Assembly: GCF_000284115.1 (NCBI RefSeq)
Contig: NC_017080.1
Coordinates: forward strand, 2,370,001 to 2,402,000
DNA from: Phycisphaera mikurensis NBRC 102666
GTDB lineage: Bacteria; Planctomycetota; Phycisphaerae; Phycisphaerales; Phycisphaeraceae
DNA length: 32,000 bases
Direction of reading: 5' to 3'
Below, one piece after another: positions 1-30,276 of the stretch. Position 1 is the stretch's first letter; each line of letters begins with the position of its first letter. A model generated the notes under the pieces. It saw only the letters and a list, made by a program, of their open reading frames with translations. It searched no databases and was not told the origin of the DNA. The position numbers and the translations under genes are program-made.

Positions 1-761
1 TCGTCTACGTGAACCTCGGCTCGCTGCTGCAGGCTGAAGCGCTGCTGCCGGGGCTGATCGCGAGCCAGTGGATGATCCTGGTGCCGATCGCCGTCGGTGC
101 GCTGTGGCTCTTCAAGGTGGACGTCGCGGCGAGCTTGAAGCTGCGGCTCCCGCGGCCCGGAGCGATCGCTGGAGCCGTGCTGATGGCGTGCGGCGGGCTG
201 GTGCTTTCGCAGCAGCTGGCGTGGGTGCAATCCTTCGTCCTCGACGTGCCCGAGGCCTTCGCCGGCGGCACGGCGCCGATCGTCGAGCACCCCTCGCTGG
301 CGCTTGTGCTCTTCGCCGTCGCCGTGTCGCCCGCCGTCTGCGAGGAGGTCTTCTTCCGCGGGACGCTGCTCGCCGGGCTCGAGGAGAAGCTGCGGCCGTG
401 GGTCGCCATCGTGCTCGCCAGCCTGCTGTTCGGCCTCTTCCACCTCTACCTGCACCGCATCCTCATCACCGCCGCACTGGGCATCGCCATCACCTGGGTC
501 GCCTGGCGGAGCCGGTCGATCTGGCCGGGGATGCTGTTCCACCTCATCAACAACGGCGTCGCCGTGCTGGCCGTGCGGGAGGTTCTGCCGCCGGGGCTGA
601 TGGGCTGGCTGGAGCGGGTGGCTCCGGTCGAGAACGGCTACCCCTGGCCGGTCGTGGCGGCAGCGGCGGCCGTGTTCGCCGCCGGGGCCGCCGTCGTCGC
701 GAGGCTTGGCCGACCCCGCGCTGCCTCCTCCCTCCCGGGTGCCACGCCCGCTCGGGCGTGA
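1..761 (+). CDS. CPBP family intramembrane metalloprotease (CAAX/Abi type), probably 5'-truncated by the window edge (alternative GTG start at 9)
   Basis: The reading frame of ORF 9..761 stays open to the window edge. All three CPBP signatures are visible: EEVFFRG (EExxxR), FGLFH (FxxxH) and FHLINN (HxxxN). The protein has several hydrophobic helices. Confidence 0.8.
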   Translation, partial: VYVNLGSLLQAEALLPGLIASQWMILVPIAVGALWLFKVDVAASLKLRLPRPGAIAGAVLMACGGLVLSQQLAWVQSFVLDVPEAFAGGTAPIVEHPSLALVLFAVAVSPAVCEEVFFRGTLLAGLEEKLRPWVAIVLASLLFGLFHLYLHRILITAALGIAITWVAWRSRSIWPGMLFHLINNGVAVLAVREVLPPGLMGWLERVAPVENGYPWPVVAAAAAVFAAGAAVVARLGRPRAASSLPGATPARA

Positions 762-912
762 GCACCGCCTCCGACGCTGGTTCCTCCACCTCCTGGAAGG
801 CTCGACCTTCAGCTCGCCCGTGCAGCGCTTCGCTCTTCCACGACGAAGGCAGAAGACCGGCCAGAGAAGGCAGAGAGAAAAAAGCGTTTCCCTTCCGTCG
901 GCCGAAGAGGCC

Positions 913-1418
913 GGTGGCTCACCGCCTCCGGCGGTGTAGGTCGGGCGGAGCCCGAGCCGGTGGCTCACCGCCTCCGGCGGTATAGGTCGGGCGAAGCCCG
1001 AGCGGGTGGCTCACCGCCTCCGGCGGTGTAGGTCGGGCGGAGCCCGAGCCGGTGGCTCACCGCCTCCGGCGGTGTAGGTCGGGCGGAGCCCGAGCCGGTG
1101 GCTCACCGCCTCCGGCGGTGTAGGTCGGGCGAAGCCCGAGCGGGTGGCTCACCGCCTCCGGCGGTGTAGGTCGGGCGAAGCCCGAGCCGGTGGCTCACCG
1201 CCTCCGGCGGTGTAGGTCGGGCGAAGCCCGAGCGGGTGGCTCACCGCCTCCGGCGGTGTAGGTCGGGCGAAGCCCGAGCCGGTGGCTCACCGCCTCCGGC
1301 GGTGTAGGTCGGGCGAAGCCCGAGCGGGTGGCTCACCGCCTCCGGCGGTGTAGGTCGGGCGAAGCCCGAGCCGGTGGCTCACCGCCTCCGGCGGTGTAGG
1401 TCGGGCGGAGCCCGAGCG
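913..1418. repeat. Tandem array of 11 copies of a 46-bp unit (REP-like, non-coding)
   Basis: The unit is GGTGGCTCACCGCCTCCGGCGGTGTAGGTCGGGCG[G/A]AGCCCGAGC[C/G]. Copies start at 913, 959, 1005, 1051, 1097, 1143, 1189, 1235, 1281, 1327 and 1373, an exact 46-nt spacing. Each unit holds two short hairpins (CACCGCC-TCC-GGCGGTG and TCGGGC-GRA-GCCCGA) separated by GTAG. The period is not a multiple of 3. TAG on the plus strand and TGA on the minus strand in each unit place stops in all frames about every 138 nt. Confidence 0.95.
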
Positions 1419-2184
1419 GATCTTGGAGACGCCGACGCATCCGCTGCGCGGACCCCGCACCGCCGGGGGCGGTGAGCCACCTGCGGACCCGCGGGCCAAC
1501 CGTCGGCAGCCTTCTCCTCGTCGGTCCCCAGCCCCGCGCCGAGCGCGAGATTCGGCAGCCGACGCCATCTGCCGGCCGGAGGCCGAGCCGGTGGCTCACC
1601 GCCTCCGGCGGTGTAGGTCGGGCGGAGCCCGAGCGGGTCTTGGAGACGCCGACGCGTCCGCTGCGCGGACCCTACACCGCCGGGGGCGGTGAGCCACCTG
1701 CGGGCCCGCGCCCCAACGGTCGGCAGCCTTTTCCTCGTCGGTCCCCGGCTTCGCGCCGAGCGCAAGATTCGGCAGCCCACGCCATCTGCCGGCCGAGGCC
1801 CGAGCCGGTGGCTCACCGCCTCCGGCGGTGTAGGTCGGGCGGAGCCCGAGCGGGTGGCTCACCGCCTCCGGCGGTGTAGGTCGGGCGGAGCCCGAGCGGG
1901 TCTTGGAGACGCCGACGCGTCCGCTGCGCGGACCCCACACCGCCGGGGGCGGTGAGCCACCGGCGGGCCCGCGCCCCAACCGTCGGCAGCCTTCTCCTCG
2001 TCGGTCCCCGGCTTCGTGCCGAGCGCAAGATTCGGCAGCCCACGCCATCTGCCGGCCGAGGCCCGAGCCGGTGGCTCACCGCCTCCGGCGGTGTAGGTCG
2101 GGCGGAGCCCGAGCGGATCTTGGAGACGCCGACGCGTCCGCTGCGCGGACCCCACACCGCCGGGGGCGGTGAGCCACCTGCGGT
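1373..2184. repeat. Higher-order ~217-bp composite repeat (46-bp unit + spacer + inverted partial copy + ~105-bp tail), 3 full and 1 truncated copies
   Basis: Composite units start at 1373, 1590, 1853 and 2070 (217-nt spacing), with an extra lone 46-bp unit at 1807. Each contains TACACCGCCGGGGGCGGTGAGCCACC, the reverse complement of the unit's 5' end with 1 mismatch. This gives a ~26-bp stem around a ~55-nt loop. The last copy stops just after the inverted arm. Confidence 0.9.
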
Positions 2185-2280
2185 CACCCGGTTGCGGGGG
2201 CCTGGCCGCCGTCGACGATCGTCAGGTCTGCGCCCCCCGTGGCTGACACGGCGTGTCAGCCCGACGGGAGCAGCGTTCGC

Positions 2281-3015
2281 TTAGACGGCGTCGCGGGCGT
2301 TGCGGAAGTAGCGGAGGCCGGCGGGATCCTGCTTGCCGCTGGTCCAGGCGGGGTGGTGCAGCGGGTCGGTCCAGCGCTCGGGGTGGGGCATGAGGCCGAA
2401 GACGCGGCCGGTGGGGTCGCAGATCCCCGCGATGCCGCGGTCGCTGCCGCTGGGGCTCTCGCCGGCGTAGCGGAGCGCGACCTGGTGGTTCTCCTCGAGC
2501 GCGTCGAGCACGGCGGCGGGCGCGGTGAACCGTCCTTCCGCGTGAGCACTGGGCAGCTCGTGCTCCCCGAGGCCGCGGGTCCACACGCACGGTGATTCCT
2601 CGTCGGCGGCGACGTGGTGCCACGCGTCGTGGAAGATCCCGCTGCGGTTGCGGGCGAGCGTGGTGATCTGCACCGCCGCGACCGGGTCGGGCAGCAGGCC
2701 GAGCTTGACGAGCACCTGGAAGCCGTTGCACACGCCGAGCACCAGCATCCCGCGCTCGATGTTCTCCTGAAGCGCGGGCAGCAGGTCCTGCCGGAGCCGG
2801 GCCGCGAGGATCCGCCCCGCGGCGATGTCGTCGCCGTGGCTGAAGCCCCCGGGCAGGCCCAGCGCGGCGAAGCCGGCGAGCCGGCCGGGCTCGCCGGCGA
2901 GCGCATTCACGTGGACGGTCTCGGGCGTGAAACCGGCCAGCGAGAAGGCGTGCGCCATCTCGGCGTCGCAGTTCGTGCCGGCCGTGCGGAGGATCAGGAC
3001 GCTGGGAGAAGCCAT
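2281..3015 (-). CDS. purQ: Phosphoribosylformylglycinamidine synthase subunit I (glutamine amidotransferase PurQ)
   Basis: The N-terminus VLILRTAGTNCD, the nucleophile elbow GVCNGFQ and the C-terminal MPHPER are typical of FGAM synthase I. The ATG at 3015 (MASPSVLIL) is preferred over the ORF-track start at 3054, which adds 13 aa. Confidence 0.9.
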   Translation of the reverse strand: MASPSVLILRTAGTNCDAEMAHAFSLAGFTPETVHVNALAGEPGRLAGFAALGLPGGFSHGDDIAAGRILAARLRQDLLPALQENIERGMLVLGVCNGFQVLVKLGLLPDPVAAVQITTLARNRSGIFHDAWHHVAADEESPCVWTRGLGEHELPSAHAEGRFTAPAAVLDALEENHQVALRYAGESPSGSDRGIAGICDPTGRVFGLMPHPERWTDPLHHPAWTSGKQDPAGLRYFRNARDAV

Positions 3016-3022
3016 GACAGAT

Positions 3023-3068
3023 CCGCGGACCGTGGAGCCAATCGATCGAAACAAGCCACGGTCCGCGG
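3023..3068 (-). other. Perfect 13-bp inverted repeat (stem-loop) in the 55-bp gap between the oxidoreductase stop and the purQ start; terminator/attenuator or operator candidate
   Basis: CCGCGGACCGTGG (3023-3035) and CCACGGTCCGCGG (3056-3068) are exact reverse complements. The 20-nt loop contains the palindrome ATCGAT. Confidence 0.35.
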
Positions 3069-6431: not shown

Positions 6432-9400
6432 ATGAGCATCGCCCCCTCGCCTGCGCGGGTTCCCGCGGCCTCGCCCGTGCTGACCGACACCGACGAGGCG
6501 GATGCCTTCGTCGGCGAGCTCTCCCGCCGCTGCCGCGGCGAGGTGCTCACCGGCCGGACGCTCCGCGGGATCTACGCCACGGACGCGTCGCTGTACCAGC
6601 AGTTCCCGCGGGCGGTGCTGGTGCCCCGCGACGAAGCGGACGTGGCGGCGGCGGTCCGCGTCTGCGCTGCGCACCGGGTGCCGATCACGCCGCGGGGCGG
6701 CGCGACCAGCCTCTCGGGGCAGACCTTCGGGCCCGGGCTGGTGCTCGACTTCTCGAAGCACATGGACCAGGTGATCTCGGTCGATGCCGAGGCGGGCACC
6801 GCGGTGGTGCAGCCCGGCGTCGTCCGCGACCGGCTCAACGCGCAGGTGGCCGAGCACGGCCTGCACCTCTCGCCCGATCCGGCGACCGGCAGCCGGGCGA
6901 CGGTGGGCGGGATGATCGGCAACAACACCTGCGGCACGCGCAGCGTCGTGTACGGCAAGACGATCGACAGCGTGATCTCGCTGCGCTGCGTGCTCGCCGA
7001 CGGGACGGTCGCCGACTTCACCCCCTGCGACGACCAGACGTGGCAGGCGCGGGCACGCGGCGAGGGCGTGAGCGAGACCGAGGCCCGCCTCTACCGCGGC
7101 GTCCGCGACCTCGTGCTGAAGCACCAGGACGCGATCCGCACCGGCTACCCCGAGGTGCTGCGTCGTGTCTCCGGCTACAACCTCGACGAGTTCGTCGACG
7201 GCGCCGGCTACACCGGCGACATCGGCCCCCGTCGCGAGCACAACCAGGGCCACCGGACCTGGAACCTGGCGAACCTCATGGTGGGCAGCGAGGGCACGCT
7301 GGGGCTGATCACCGAGGCGACCGTCCACCTGGAGAAGCTTCCCGAAGCGACCGCGCTGGTCATCGTGCACTTCGACTCGCTCGACGCGAGCCTCCGCCAC
7401 GTCGACGCGATGCTCGAGCACAAGCCCAGCACCGTCGAGCTGCTCGACGACATCGTGATCCGCGAGGCGAAGGTGAACCCGTCGACCAAGGCGATGTGCA
7501 ACTTCGTCGAGGGCGAACCGGCGGCCGTGCAGCTCGTCGAGTTCTTCGGCGACACGCCGGAGGAAGCCGCGGACCGCGCCGAGAACTTTGCCCGCGACAT
7601 GGCGGTCCGCGGGATCGGCTACGCGCACCCGATCCGCACCGATCCCAAGGGCATGGCCGACGTGTGGAACACGCGGAAGCTCGGGCTCGGGCTCATCTCC
7701 AACAACTACGGGCCGCTCAAGGGCAAGGACTTCATCGAGGACGCCTGCGTGCCCACGCGGCACCTCGCCGACTACATCCAGAAGATCCAGAAGCTCTGCC
7801 AAGAGAACGGCATCGACCGCCTCGCGCTCTACGCCCACGCCTCGGTGGGCGTCGTCCATGTGGTCCCCGCGCTGGACCTGCACCACGACGACCAGGTGGA
7901 GACGATGGAGCGTGTGGCCGAGCAGGCCTTCGCGTGGGTGATGGAGTACGGCGGCAGCTGGTCGGGCGAGCACGGCGACGGGCAGCTCCGCGGGCAGTTC
8001 CTGCCGAAGATGTTTGGCCCGGAGCTGTACGGAGCCTTCCGCGAGGTGAAGTCGCTGTTCGATCCGCACAACCTCATGAACCCCGGGAAGGTGGTGGACG
8101 CGGATCCGATGTCCGAGGGCCTGCGTTACCAGGTGCCGGGTTACAACAAGCGGATCGCGGAAGTCCGCACCCTGCACCACCACCGCTCGCAGGGCGGCTT
8201 CCAGCTGGCCGTCGAGCAGTGCAACGGGGTGGGGGCTTGCCGCAAGCTCGGCAGCGGCACGATGTGCCCCTCCTACATGGCGACGCGGAACGAGAAGGAC
8301 ACCACCCGCGGCCGGGCCAACGCCCTGCGGCTGGCGATGTCCGGGCAGCTCGGTCCCGACCCGATGGCGGCGCTCGCCGGCGACGGCGTGAAGGGCGTGT
8401 TGGACCTCTGCCTCTCGTGCAAGGCCTGCAAAACCGAGTGCCCCAACGCGGTGGACATGGGCAAGATGAAGGCGGACGTGATGCAGATCCGCCACGACCG
8501 CTACGGGGCGAGCCTGGGGTACAAGCTGCTCGGCCGCATGCCCGATGCGGCCGCCAGAATCGCCGGGCCGCTGGCGCCGCTGATCCAGCTGCCGCTGAAG
8601 ATCCCCGGCGTCCGCTTCGTGATGGAGAAGCTCACGGGCATCGACCGCCGGCGGCCGCTGCCGGCCTTCAGCTCCACCACGCTGGCGCGGGAACTCGGAG
8701 GCCGCCGCCCGCGGAGCGAGGTCGAAGCGCCGCGGGGCCCGGTGGTCCTCTTCGACGACACGTACGCCAGCTACATGGAGCCGGGGGTCGGCGTCGCGGC
8801 GGTGGAGCTGCTCGAGGCCGCCGGCTTCCGCGTGACGCTCGCCGACGCCGGCTGCTGCCAGCGCCCGCGGCTGTCCAAGGGCCTCGTCCGCGAAGCCAAG
8901 CAGTTGGGGACGCAGACCCTCCGCAACCTCGACGGCTTCGCCCGCGAGGGCCTCAAGATCGTGTGCCTGGAGCCCAGCTGCGCTTCGGCCCTGGTCGACG
9001 ACCTCCCCGACCTGTGCGACGACGGCGAGGAGGCGGAGATGGGCCGGCGGGTGGCGGAGCAGGTCCGCATGATCGACGTCTTCCTCGACGAGGAGGGCGT
9101 GGAGCTGGAGTCCTCCGTCGGCGACACGCTGCTGCACGGCCACTGCCACCAGAAGGCGATGTTCGGCACCGCCTCGACGAAGAGAGCGCTGGGCGCCGGC
9201 TGCACCGAGGTCGACAGCGGCTGCTGCGGCATGGCCGGTAGCTTCGGCTACGAACACATGAACGTGAGCGAGAAGATCGGCGAGGACCGGCTCTTCCCTG
9301 CCGTGCGGGGAGCCGCCGCGGCGGGCAAGACGATCGTGGCGCCGGGTCTCTCGTGCCGGCACCAGATACTCGACTTCCTCGGTGTCGAGGCGAAGCACTT

Positions 9401-11192: not shown

Positions 11193-12320
11193 TCATCGCC
11201 CGGCTCCGGCCGACCCGCCGATCCGTGCCGCCGACTCCTCCAGCAGCTCCAGCACGCGGCGGATGGACTCCGCCGCCGGCAGCCCCGCGCCCACCGCCAC
11301 GGCCGCCCGCAGCCCCAGCGTCGCCGGGTCCTCCACCTCCACCCGCCCGCACAGCGCCACCACGGGCACGCCCGCGGCGGCCGATCGCCGCGTCACCGCC
11401 GCGACCGCCTTCCCGCTGCCGGTCTGTCCGTCGAGCATCCCCTCGCCGGTGACGACCAGGTCGAAGCCGCCGAGCCGCCGATCGAAGCCCACCGCGTCCA
11501 GCAGCAGGTCCGCGCCGGGCACCAGCTCCGCGCCCAGCAGCGCCACCGCCCCGCCGCCGAAGCCGCCCGCGGCGCCGGCACCCGCCCGCGTCGCCACGCT
11601 CACGCCCAAGCCCTCGCGGAACACGCGCTCCAGGTGACACAGCCCCGCGTCCAAGGCCGGCAGGTCCGCCTCCGCCGCCCCCTTCTGCCGGGCGTACACG
11701 CGAGCCGCGCCCGCCGGACCGGTCATCGGGTTGGCGACGTCGCACGCCACCCGCAGCCGCACGCCCGCCAGCCGCGGGTGGAGCCCCCCGAGCGCGATGC
11801 CGCTCACCGAGGCGAGGTCCGCCCCCGTCGGCTGCGCGACCCGCGAGCCGTCTCCCCGCAGCACCGCCGCCCCCAGCGCCGCCGCCGCCCCCAGCGCCCC
11901 GTCGTGCGTGGCGGAGCCGCCGATGCCCAGGACGATCTCCTCCGCTCCCGCGTCCAGCGCCGCCGAGAGCAGCTGCCCGGTCCCGTAGGTCGACGTCTTC
12001 CACGGGTCTCGCTCCGCCTCGTCGAGCCGCTCCAGGCCCGAGGCCTCCGCGAGGTCCAGCACCGCGTGTCGGACGCCTCCGACGCTGCCGATCCAGAAAC
12101 GCCCGCGGACCGGCCGCCCCAGCGGGTCGAGGGCCTCGCGGTCCGCGGCCTCCAGGCCCGCGGCGGCGGCGTACGCCGCCGCGAAACCCTCGCCCCCGTC
12201 CGCGATCGGCCGCTCCACCGCCTCGTGGCCCGCCCGCCGCAGCCCCGCCGCGATCGCACCGGCCGCCTCGGCCGCGGTGCAGGCGTCCTTGAAGCCGTCG
12301 GGGCACACGAGCACGCGCAT
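11193..12320 (-). CDS. Glycerate kinase family protein
   Basis: MRVLVCPDGFKD, PIADGGEGF, GIGGSATHDGALG and VVTGEGMLDGQTGSGKAV are hallmark glycerate kinase (GlxK/GarK) motifs. Confidence 0.88.
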   Translation of the reverse strand: MRVLVCPDGFKDACTAAEAAGAIAAGLRRAGHEAVERPIADGGEGFAAAYAAAAGLEAADREALDPLGRPVRGRFWIGSVGGVRHAVLDLAEASGLERLDEAERDPWKTSTYGTGQLLSAALDAGAEEIVLGIGGSATHDGALGAAAALGAAVLRGDGSRVAQPTGADLASVSGIALGGLHPRLAGVRLRVACDVANPMTGPAGAARVYARQKGAAEADLPALDAGLCHLERVFREGLGVSVATRAGAGAAGGFGGGAVALLGAELVPGADLLLDAVGFDRRLGGFDLVVTGEGMLDGQTGSGKAVAAVTRRSAAAGVPVVALCGRVEVEDPATLGLRAAVAVGAGLPAAESIRRVLELLEESAARIGGSAGAGR

Positions 12321-26513: not shown

Positions 26514-27101
26514 CTAAGCCGGATCGGCGTGGTTGCCGCGGGCGGCGGCGTCGGCGAGACCGGCGGGCGCCGGCGTCTCGACCACGCCGACGCCGGCCAG
26601 CCGCCGCTGGAAGGAACGCTCGCCGCGCGCCAGCGCCGCCTCCAGGCCCGAGATCATCCGCGTGTGGTACTTCCCGGGCAGCGGCTGAAAGCGGCGCGGC
26701 GGGCCGGCCTCGCGGAAGACGCTCGCGTCGACGCCGTCGGGCTCGGGCAGCCGATCGACCACGGCGGGGTCGACGGCGACCGCGTCGCACGCGAGCAGGA
26801 GCAGCCAGCCGGGGCCGGCCTGCGCCTCGCGGTGCCGCAGGCCCGCGAGCAGGCCGGCCAGCGGGCCGGCCCCGGCATGCTCGGTCGGGTCGGTGATCGT
26901 CGGCAGGCCCCACGCGTCGAAGGCACCCGCCGCGCGAGCGACCGCGAAGGGTCGCGGATCCGCGGACCGTGCGATGAAACGCCGCGAAACGGCCACGGTC
27001 CGCGGGAGCCCGCCGCCGGCGTCGGCGAAGGCCTTGTCGCCGCCGAAGCGGCGGCTTCGGCCGCCGGCGAGCACGCAGATCCAGGAGGGCTCCGGCGTCA
27101 C
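26514..27101 (-). CDS. mobA: Molybdenum cofactor guanylyltransferase
   Basis: The N-terminal nucleotide-binding motif is VLAGGRSRRFGGDKA. At 195 aa it is typical in size, and its GTG start overlaps the moaC/moaB stop (GTGA). Confidence 0.85.
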   Translation of the reverse strand: MTPEPSWICVLAGGRSRRFGGDKAFADAGGGLPRTVAVSRRFIARSADPRPFAVARAAGAFDAWGLPTITDPTEHAGAGPLAGLLAGLRHREAQAGPGWLLLLACDAVAVDPAVVDRLPEPDGVDASVFREAGPPRRFQPLPGKYHTRMISGLEAALARGERSFQRRLAGVGVVETPAPAGLADAAARGNHADPA

Positions 27102-30037: not shown

Positions 30038-30276
30038 GGGTGCCACGCCGCTTGCGGGGTGGCGAGGGCGGGAGGTCGCCGCGACGCGGCCACCCCGCAA
30101 GCGGCGTGGCACCCGGGCATCGGGGGGTGGCGAGGGCGGGAGGTCGCCGTGACGCGGCCACCCCGCAAGCGGCGTGGCACCCGGGCATCGGGGGGTGGCG
30201 AGGGCGGGAGGTCGTCGCGACGCGGCCACCCCGCAAGCGGCGTGGCACCCGGGCATCGGGGGGTCTTGGAAGACCC
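30038..30276. repeat. 3 x 68-bp tandem repeat preceded by one inverted arm (26-bp perfect inverted repeat) in the nasS-porin intergenic leader
   Basis: Units start at 30058, 30126 and 30194 (68-nt spacing) and differ by single bases in the loop segment. GGGTGCCACGCCGCTTGCGGGGTGGC (30038-30063) is the exact reverse complement of 30089-30114. The array ends with the hairpin GGGTCTTGGAAGACCC. Confidence 0.9.

Follow-up and report, generated by a model that had tools for sequence, protein, structure and literature searches.

A tandem cluster of paired hairpins between two converging genes of Phycisphaera mikurensis, a probable REP/BIME-type repeat

What kind of element fills the 1.5-kb intergenic gap between two converging genes in the planctomycete Phycisphaera mikurensis NBRC 102666, where a 46-bp tandem repeat passes into longer units that carry inverted copies of the same sequence? 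The genome of this bacterium consists of a 3.80-Mb chromosome (C1) and an 81-kb second replicon, with 73% G+C, and the window analysed here is a 32,000-nt stretch of the chromosome (C1:2370001-2402000) in which the array occupies positions 913-2184; sister loci are named by their C1 position (350k, 1844k/1846k and 3712k). The array is probably a non-coding cluster of palindromic repeats of the kind known as repetitive extragenic palindromes (REPs) and bacterial interspersed mosaic elements (BIMEs). As such, the cluster is BIME-2-like or similar to tandem REPINs (inverted REP doublets), and it is a species-specific addition to a known repeat class, an element of an ordinary kind. The anatomy of the array, the genome census of its module, the covariation of its small hairpin and the uneven conservation of its parts are direct observations and carry the argument.

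Tandem Repeats Finder resolves a period of 46 bp at 910-1417 (11.0 copies, 96% matches), one of 217 bp at 1356-1855 (2.3 copies, 92% matches) and one of 263 bp, the sum of the other two, at 1573-2116 (97% matches). The forward module, GGTGGCTCACCGCCTCCGGCGGTG, starts first at 913 and recurs in 46-nt steps to 1373, and then at 1590, 1807, 1853 and 2070. An initial annotation of this DNA had described a simple 46-bp array with the same unit recurring every 217 nt downstream of it, and both the periods and the unit starts (1373, 1590, 1853 and 2070) bear out this recurrence. Within each 217-nt unit, module A (46 nt) comes first, and linker B, the inverted arm A' and tail C follow in that order (coordinates in Table 1). 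The simple array is present as described, but it is not a separate structure: it is the amplified module A of the first unit, its eleventh copy doubling as module A of that unit, and the successive units contain 11, 1, 2 and 1 copies of the module. The lone 46-bp copy that had been reported at 1807 is the additional module of the third unit. Likewise, the last unit is indeed cut right after its inverted arm, at the same point of the unit where the 1846k sister array stops.

Module A is itself composed of two small hairpins. A GGTGGCT flank is followed by the hairpin hp1 (CACCGCC/TCC/GGCGGTG), a GTAG tag, a single G, the hairpin hp2 (TCGGGC/GRA/GCCCGA) and a final GC[C/G], and in copies 5-10 the endings GCG and GCC alternate, giving a 92-bp sub-period. 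The inverted arm, CACCGCCGGGGGCGGTGAGCCACC, was located in all four units. It matches the first 24 nt of the unit as their reverse complement, apart from a single mismatch at the centre (T opposite G), as had been claimed for an inverted copy of the first 26 nt. However, the inversion extends further than claimed. The 3' end of linker B reads GTCCGC/TGC/GCGGAC followed by CC[CT]AC, which on the other strand becomes GT[AG]G, a G, a 6-bp stem and a 3-nt loop; since this mirrors the tag-stem-loop order, it is an inverted, diverged hp2 with a different, fully complementary stem, named hp2* here. Each unit, therefore, contains a pair of oppositely oriented composite palindromic units, both about 44 nt long, Y (module A) and Z (hp2* plus A'), which differ in the second stem and in the GGG/CCC loop of Z. 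Tail C closes with a third hairpin of this type, hp2' (TCGGCC/GGA/GGCCGA), immediately ahead of the next module A, and a degenerate form of the same element forms the left edge, so that the whole array can be written as [hp2'] A(11) B Z C / A(1) B Z C / A(2) B Z C / A(1) B Z. Thus, hp2, hp2* and hp2' present three perfectly complementary 6-bp stems in a common tag-stem-loop architecture. GTAG stands 1 nt 5' of hp2 in 14 of the 15 window copies, and GT[AG]G adjoins hp2* on the other strand in three of four; because the tag lies between hp1 and hp2, its assignment to one or the other is ambiguous. Furthermore, hp2' and hp2 are direct repeats identical at 16 of 18 positions, 46 nt apart and bracketing the 28-nt hp1 segment, and the hp2' of units 2-4 looks like a chimera of hp2' and hp2. 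At the level of the whole unit, arms A and A' form a stem of 24-31 bp (26-31 bp with flanking bases) around a loop of 57-61 nt in the four window units and in 11 units elsewhere, and this anatomy fits the inverted REP doublets chained in tandem that had been proposed.

The module is by no means confined to this locus. Its core is 30 nt long and comprises GGTGGCT, a 7-bp hairpin with a TCC loop and GT[AG]G, and a census of the genome made irrespective of stem sequence found 125 perfect hp1 hairpins at about 33 sites. Their stems are CACCGCC (42), CATCGAC (46), CATCCAC (35) and CACGCAC (2), all self-complementary, while a GGTGGCT-like 5' flank is present in 125 of 125, the TCC loop in 104 and, behind the last G of the stem, T[AG]G as the 3' flank in 119; conversely, 119 of the 168 exact 9-mers GGTGGCTCA in the genome run into a perfect 7-bp hairpin. 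The CATCGAC and CATCCAC forms build arrays with periods of 139, 140 and 112 bp at about ten other loci, among them 139-bp arrays at about 678k and 3477k that are intergenic like the window array. The linkers of the 139-bp family are unrelated to those of the window array, and no more than 6 nt separate its two arms; nevertheless, the 46/217-bp and 139-bp arrays form one super-family built on a single 30-nt module at about 33 sites. Arrays with a period of about 200 bp at 350k, 1846k and 3712k contain A-B-A' units identical in kind to those of the window. Altogether, there are 15 such doublets (window, 4; 350k, 2; 1844k/1846k, 1+4; 3712k, 4) at 4-5 loci, with about 3.5 repeats of the Y-B-Z-C unit in the window and 2.5-4.5 at its sister loci, and the amplified 46-bp array of module A occurs at the window locus only. 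A genome with no other copies, in which changes between copies disrupted the pairing, is what the initial annotation had named as fatal to its finding; the first half of this fails outright, given the other doublets and the roughly 125 core hairpins.

The sister loci also reveal what has spread. The arrays at 350k (C1:349900-350650) and 3712k (C1:3711800-3712900) have the flanking sequence on either side in common, as well as an adjoining paralogous gene of 345 aa, in opposite orientation, which indicates one segmental duplication that carried the array along. Tail C is homologous between the window and 1846k, and one 3712k unit has a window-type tail segment; this homology and this mosaic unit imply that the spreading unit is at least the whole of about 200 nt and not the doublet alone. 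Single arm-like words, e.g., CCGTCCGCGG, are contained in the tail C of sister arrays. In the 1846k array (C1:1846633-1847110), linker B is shortened by 18 nt and GGTTTTTGAGG comes after hp2; a hairpin with a run of five T is rare at 73% G+C and resembles an intrinsic terminator, and this array is co-oriented with its upstream gene. A further region, C1:1344400-1352100, was examined as the possible site of a master copy: it spans about 7.7 kb without gene-like open reading frames and holds many 336-bp repeats and other hairpin families, together with two diverged whole copies of module A (CGTGGCTCACCGCCCTCGGCGGTG...GTCGGGCGCAGCCCGAGC).

Which of the nested structures is kept can be decided from how the copies vary. 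The 234-nt unit folds far better than expected, at -152.1 kcal/mol as RNA of the + strand (z -5.25), -155.6 as RNA of the - strand (z -5.09) and -86.2 as DNA (z -5.26), with none of 200 shuffles folding as well, and in the predicted fold a long stem of 28-31 bp surrounds a multiloop of three small hairpins. Among 42 distinct hp1 sequences, filtered for at least 5 of 7 pairs and representing about four stem lineages, 95.6% of cells are paired, and in four of the seven pairs both partners vary. Their covariation score, 0.434, compares with 0.149 +/- 0.019 for shuffles (none of 500 as high) and no more than 0.063 with slid partners. By contrast, the long A:A' stem is invariant at 19 of 28 pairs across the 15 doublets and offers no useful covariation there (0.058 versus 0.051 in shuffles), and its variable positions mostly break the pairing (9/15 and 3/15 cells unpaired). 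Compensatory changes thus maintain the small local hairpin hp1, whereas the 26-bp stem is nearly invariant and its few changes mostly disrupt pairing. In the 139-bp family, the two arms bear different stems (CATCGAC and CATCCAC), so that each local hairpin is perfect while a long stem between the arms would have two mismatches. Conservation between loci is similarly uneven, with 97% identity in A and 96% in A' versus 56% in B and 68% in C, and within hp1 the single-stranded parts (5' flank, loop and tag) are constant while the stem covaries. Since the local stems compensate and the long A:A' stem is too invariant to be informative, the constrained unit is the small hairpin together with the flanks and loop that stay fixed around it, and the long hairpin is a consequence of the inverted arrangement.

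Searches in other genomes delimit the family. With a degenerate pattern, the module was found in none of 40 relatives and in none of the genomes of a collection of 185,579 species, and eight single-copy matches in metagenomes are regarded as chance because they form no hairpin and lie in contigs of lower GC. Moreover, a covariance model (R1) gave 120 matches in the genome of P. mikurensis and none in 60 other genera of the same family. On these sequence searches, which covered about 75 genomes of other genera and two public collections, the hairpin family is restricted to the species. The array is also contained in an independent draft assembly, GCA_014207395.1 (JACHEL010000001.1, in the region matching window positions 700-2340), and is thus not an assembly artefact. 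In this draft, a run of N lies inside the 46-bp array and one 263-bp block (217+46) is missing, with a hybrid unit at the junction, which reflects either repeat collapse in short-read assembly or genuine variation in copy number.

Several known systems share this anatomy in part. REP/BIME elements and TnpA-REP of Escherichia coli are reportedly the subject of work by Ton-Hoang in 2012. The resemblance to the BIME-2 of E. coli (Y + Z2 units) lies in two variants of a palindromic unit that alternate in orientation, two kinds of linker, head-to-tail iteration, an extragenic location at the 3' ends of genes and a GTAG-type tag adjoining the hairpin; it is a likeness of repeat anatomy. Unlike BIME-2, the P. 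mikurensis unit is a two-hairpin composite with a conserved 5' flank of 7 nt, its linkers, of about 31 and 108 nt, far exceed those of BIME-2 in length, one half-unit (A) has been multiplied on its own into a 46-bp repeat, and the family, hosted by a planctomycete of high G+C, flanks no gene for a REP-associated tyrosine transposase (RAYT). Tandem clusters of REPINs with flanking sequence have been described in Pseudomonas fluorescens SBW25 (Bertels & Rainey 2011, PMC3116915), where, as here, inverted REP doublets forming a long hairpin are repeated with flanking sequence in clusters of several hundred bp. However, the majority of SBW25 REPINs occur singly and dispersed, and every REPIN group includes a cluster adjacent to the RAYT of that group (PMC3116915), while the P. 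mikurensis doublets are all in arrays and none lies beside a RAYT-like gene. As for REPIN-RAYT systems (REPtrons) in general, the array has two inverted REPs forming one long hairpin, but neither a RAYT flanked by the same REPs nor mostly dispersed single doublets.

A further comparison concerns REPs tagged with GTAG or GTRG, which have stems of 5-13 bp, complementary stem sub-families and tandem clusters, and which include examples in Planctomycetes (Di Nocera et al. 2013, PMC3733652); Group 3 REPs, too, consist of small perfect palindromes adjoining GTAG (Corneloup 2021, PMC8266576). The P. mikurensis stems fall within the described range (hp1, 7 bp; hp2, 6 bp), with 3-nt loops, high copy number, extragenic location and an unpaired GTAG/GTRG tag, and the four hp1 and three hp2-type stems correspond to complementary sub-families. 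Head-to-head and tail-to-tail dimers, and clusters of dimers reiterated with flanking DNA, are further common traits. In contrast to these REPs, the tag of P. mikurensis, whose family consensus is GGTGGCT, hairpin and TCC loop, lies between two hairpins, and the comparison is one of described traits.

The genomic position of the arrays agrees with this class. All module arrays are intergenic and every array lies downstream of at least one gene; by crude open-reading-frame calls based on G+C at third codon positions (GC3), about 6-7 of the 13 arrays with at least two modules stand between convergent genes, 6-7 between co-directional genes and none between divergent ones, and this lack of divergent contexts fits the habit of REPs and BIMEs of lying at the 3' ends of genes. 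Array orientation relative to the neighbouring genes differs between loci. Cumulative GC skew locates the origin at about 0.08 Mb and the terminus at about 2.08 Mb, and no bias for a replication strand was found, orientations being mixed on both replichores. The crudeness of the gene calls is one of several points that weigh against assigning the arrays to the REP/BIME class. The GT[AG]G tag follows hp1 on its 3' side and takes a 5' position only in relation to hp2. The covariation of hp1 rests on about four stem lineages, and copy counts overstate the number of independent events because copies within an array are recent duplicates. Moreover, none of the three RAYT-like genes in the genome is flanked by the GGTGGCT-hairpin family, the nearest GGTGGCTCA copy being 57 kb and 25 kb away from the first two, and no dispersed A-B-A' doublets were found in the genome, all 15 sitting in tandem arrays.

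The last two points also bear on an active REPIN-RAYT system, in which the A-B-A' doublet would be a non-autonomous element copied by a genomic Y1 (RAYT) transposase and the array would be its by-product or source. The geometry of inverted doublets with a 26-31-bp stem, the GT[AG]G tags adjoining small perfect hairpins and the presence of three RAYT-like genes all speak for such a system. Two of these genes (C1:3005658-3006344 and C1:3573575-3574336) match PF01797 (Y1_Tnp), with scores of 64 and 58 bits for NF047646, below its cut-off of 80, and the third, near C1:2185510-2186060, is divergent. However, each is bracketed by hairpins of its own (GGAAAAGGTGACAGCCACCGATT, GAAGGTGTCAGGTACATTC and CCGGACCGCCACGCGGTCCGG, respectively) and not by the GGTGGCT-hairpin family, so that a REPIN/RAYT system in the strict sense finds no support. 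The REP flanking RAYT-1 (AATCGGTGGCTGTCACC) has the 8-mer CGGTGGCT in common with the conserved hp1 flank, a weak lead only. Further against an active system, the 4-5 loci that hold the doublets include two derived from one segmental duplication, the homology of tail C between loci requires a spreading unit of at least 200 nt, and the monomer array exists in the window alone; taken together, such a system is an unlikely source of the array. The same absence of dispersed doublets and the restriction of the monomer array to one locus leave the earlier idea of a nursery for mobile elements unsupported. The loci C1:3005464-3006481 (228 aa) and C1:3573481-3574304 (253 aa) are of interest in themselves, since they have their own inverted hairpin repeats, with about 24 genome copies each, and look like classical REPtrons with the repeats GGAAAAGGTGACAGCCACCGATT and GAAGGTGTCAGGTACATTC. 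The motif TTCTTGG, found in linker B and in the RAYT-1 REPs, was discarded as uninformative, as it has 291 copies in the genome and its co-occurrence with GGTGGCT comes down to these two families plus chance.

A second explanation, also put forward initially, is a long modular structured RNA, whether an array of small RNAs or modules of 3' untranslated regions, in which the hairpins would be selected at the RNA level on one strand. The very stable predicted folds (z about -5) and the position of the arrays, always downstream of at least one gene, are compatible with it, and the single mismatch of the long stem in the window is a T opposite G on the + strand. Nevertheless, the + strand, the - strand and the DNA fold equally well, and G.T and A.C mismatches in hp1 are equal in number (13 versus 13). 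Moreover, array orientation relative to genes is inconsistent between loci, the long stem covaries no more usefully than shuffles, and the linkers diverge fast. No Rfam family was matched, apart from two chance matches to microRNA hairpins (34 and 21 bits versus a gathering score of 100), and neither a sigma-70-like promoter nor an intrinsic terminator was found. Selection as a structured RNA is, therefore, quite improbable.

Least probable of the three is a plain minisatellite, i.e., neutral tandem duplication with incidental hairpins and no recognition or function specific to them. Arrays that end at different unit phases from locus to locus, without terminal repeats or target duplications, the higher-order periods of 92, 217 and 263 bp, typical of unequal crossing-over, and the 263-bp block missing from the second assembly would all be expected of it. 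What tells against it is that one 30-nt module with constant flanks and loop and four compensated stems builds unrelated arrays (139, 140, 112 and about 200 bp) at some 33 sites, and that the arms are 96-97% identical between loci while the linkers reach 56-68%. Coding is rejected, as the periods of 46 and 217 are not multiples of 3 and a TAG (+) or TGA (-) in each unit closes all frames within 138 nt, the open reading frames listed in the array yielding repeat-derived, low-complexity products; a CRISPR array is ruled out because the supposed spacers B and C recur in every unit and at other loci. A CRISPR-like array with a 66-bp period, about 60 copies and a constant repeat of about 36 nt (GTTTCGATCCACGCCCGCGTGGAGCGGGCGAC...) does exist at C1:768789-772775, and a RAYT-1-type REP copy adjoins it at about 768710.

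The two genes that converge on the array are the 3' part of a gene for an ABC-permease/CPBP intramembrane protease, which in the second assembly shows Pfam ABC2_membrane and Rce1-like domains and whose stop codon lies 137 nt 5' of the array, and purQ, which runs toward the array and ends about 97 nt beyond it (Table 1). Other hairpin repeats are also found in the window. At 30056-30264, there is an unrelated hairpin array of the GGGTGCCACGCC...GGCGTGGCACCC type (68-bp period, 3.1 copies, 97% matches), a family that forms arrays with periods of 96-181 bp at no fewer than a dozen further genomic loci. In addition, the motif CCGCGGACCG-N26-CGGTCCGCGG occurs at 3023-3068, 7567-7612, 12103-12148 and 26960-27005 and has 477 exact copies in the chromosome; despite its equal length of 46 nt, it is a family distinct from module A.

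Table 1. Features of the array locus and of its flanking genes, in window positions.
Feature	Position	Strand	Composition or basis
3' part of ABC-permease/CPBP intramembrane protease gene	3-761	+	Open reading frame; NCBIfam NF041647 ABC_perm_CPBP, E 2.7e-54
Left edge of the array, degenerate hp2'-type hairpin TCGGCCGAAGAGGCC	898-912	+	Read from sequence
Eleven tandem 46-nt copies of module A	913-1418	+	Tandem Repeats Finder, sequence register
Higher-order unit 1	1373-1589	+	A 1373-1418; B 1419-1457, including hp2* 1439-1453; A' 1458-1481; C 1482-1589, terminal hp2' 1571-1589
Higher-order unit 2	1590-1806	+	A 1590-1635; hp2* 1656-1670 (GTCCGC/TGC/GCGGAC), then tag CCCTAC; A' 1675-1698; C to 1806
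Extra single module A, giving unit 3 two A modules	1807-1852	+	Sequence register
Higher-order unit 3	1853-2069	+	A 1853-1898; hp2* 1919-1933; A' 1938-1961; C to 2069
Higher-order unit 4, truncated	2070-2184	+	A 2070-2115; hp2* 2136-2150; A' 2155-2178; then TGCGG, where family homology stops
purQ, phosphoribosylformylglycinamidine synthase subunit	2281-3015	-	Open reading frame; NCBIfam PurQ, E 4.6e-50; PF13507

If the array is a REP/BIME-type cluster, its anatomy suggests how it may have grown. Local growth would proceed by slipped-strand mispairing or unequal recombination, with whole blocks of 217 or 263 nt being duplicated. The hp2' and hp2 direct repeats, being 46 nt apart, are a natural substrate for slippage that would yield exactly a 46-bp repeat, and the monomer array seems to be a product of the higher-order unit, made by slippage between these near-identical repeats, and not its ancestor. 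With regard to recognition, fixed flanks and a fixed loop around a covarying stem are the signature of a module that is recognised as a folded hairpin, and the module would be read in single-stranded form by a protein that discriminates by sequence as well as by structure, for which the HUH/Y1 (RAYT-type) enzymes, acting in trans, are the best candidate class. Given their position downstream of genes, the clusters probably contribute their hairpins to the 3' ends of the converging transcripts, where, by analogy with what has been reported for REPs and BIMEs, these hairpins would serve as stabilisers or terminators or as sites for the handling of supercoils. A bolder proposal, which is rather doubtful, goes further: GGTGGCT-hairpin-GT[AG]G would be the docking site of a hairpin-reading protein, either an orphan or trans-acting Y1 enzyme or one unrelated to RAYTs, and the arrays would be kept for an intergenic job. 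As an example of such a job, they may act as bidirectional insulators at transcript ends or in supercoil handling, with a strength tuned by copy number.

Thus, one of the many intergenic tandem arrays of P. mikurensis is now explained, and the 46/217-bp and 139-bp arrays are united in a single super-family. The nested copy number of module A (11, 1, 2 and 1) offers a ready-made variable-number marker for strain typing. Moreover, the folded hp1 module is a concrete probe for the protein that services REP-like repeats in Planctomycetota and, if it were indeed a docking site, P. mikurensis would possess a REP-like system that is maintained without a linked transposase.

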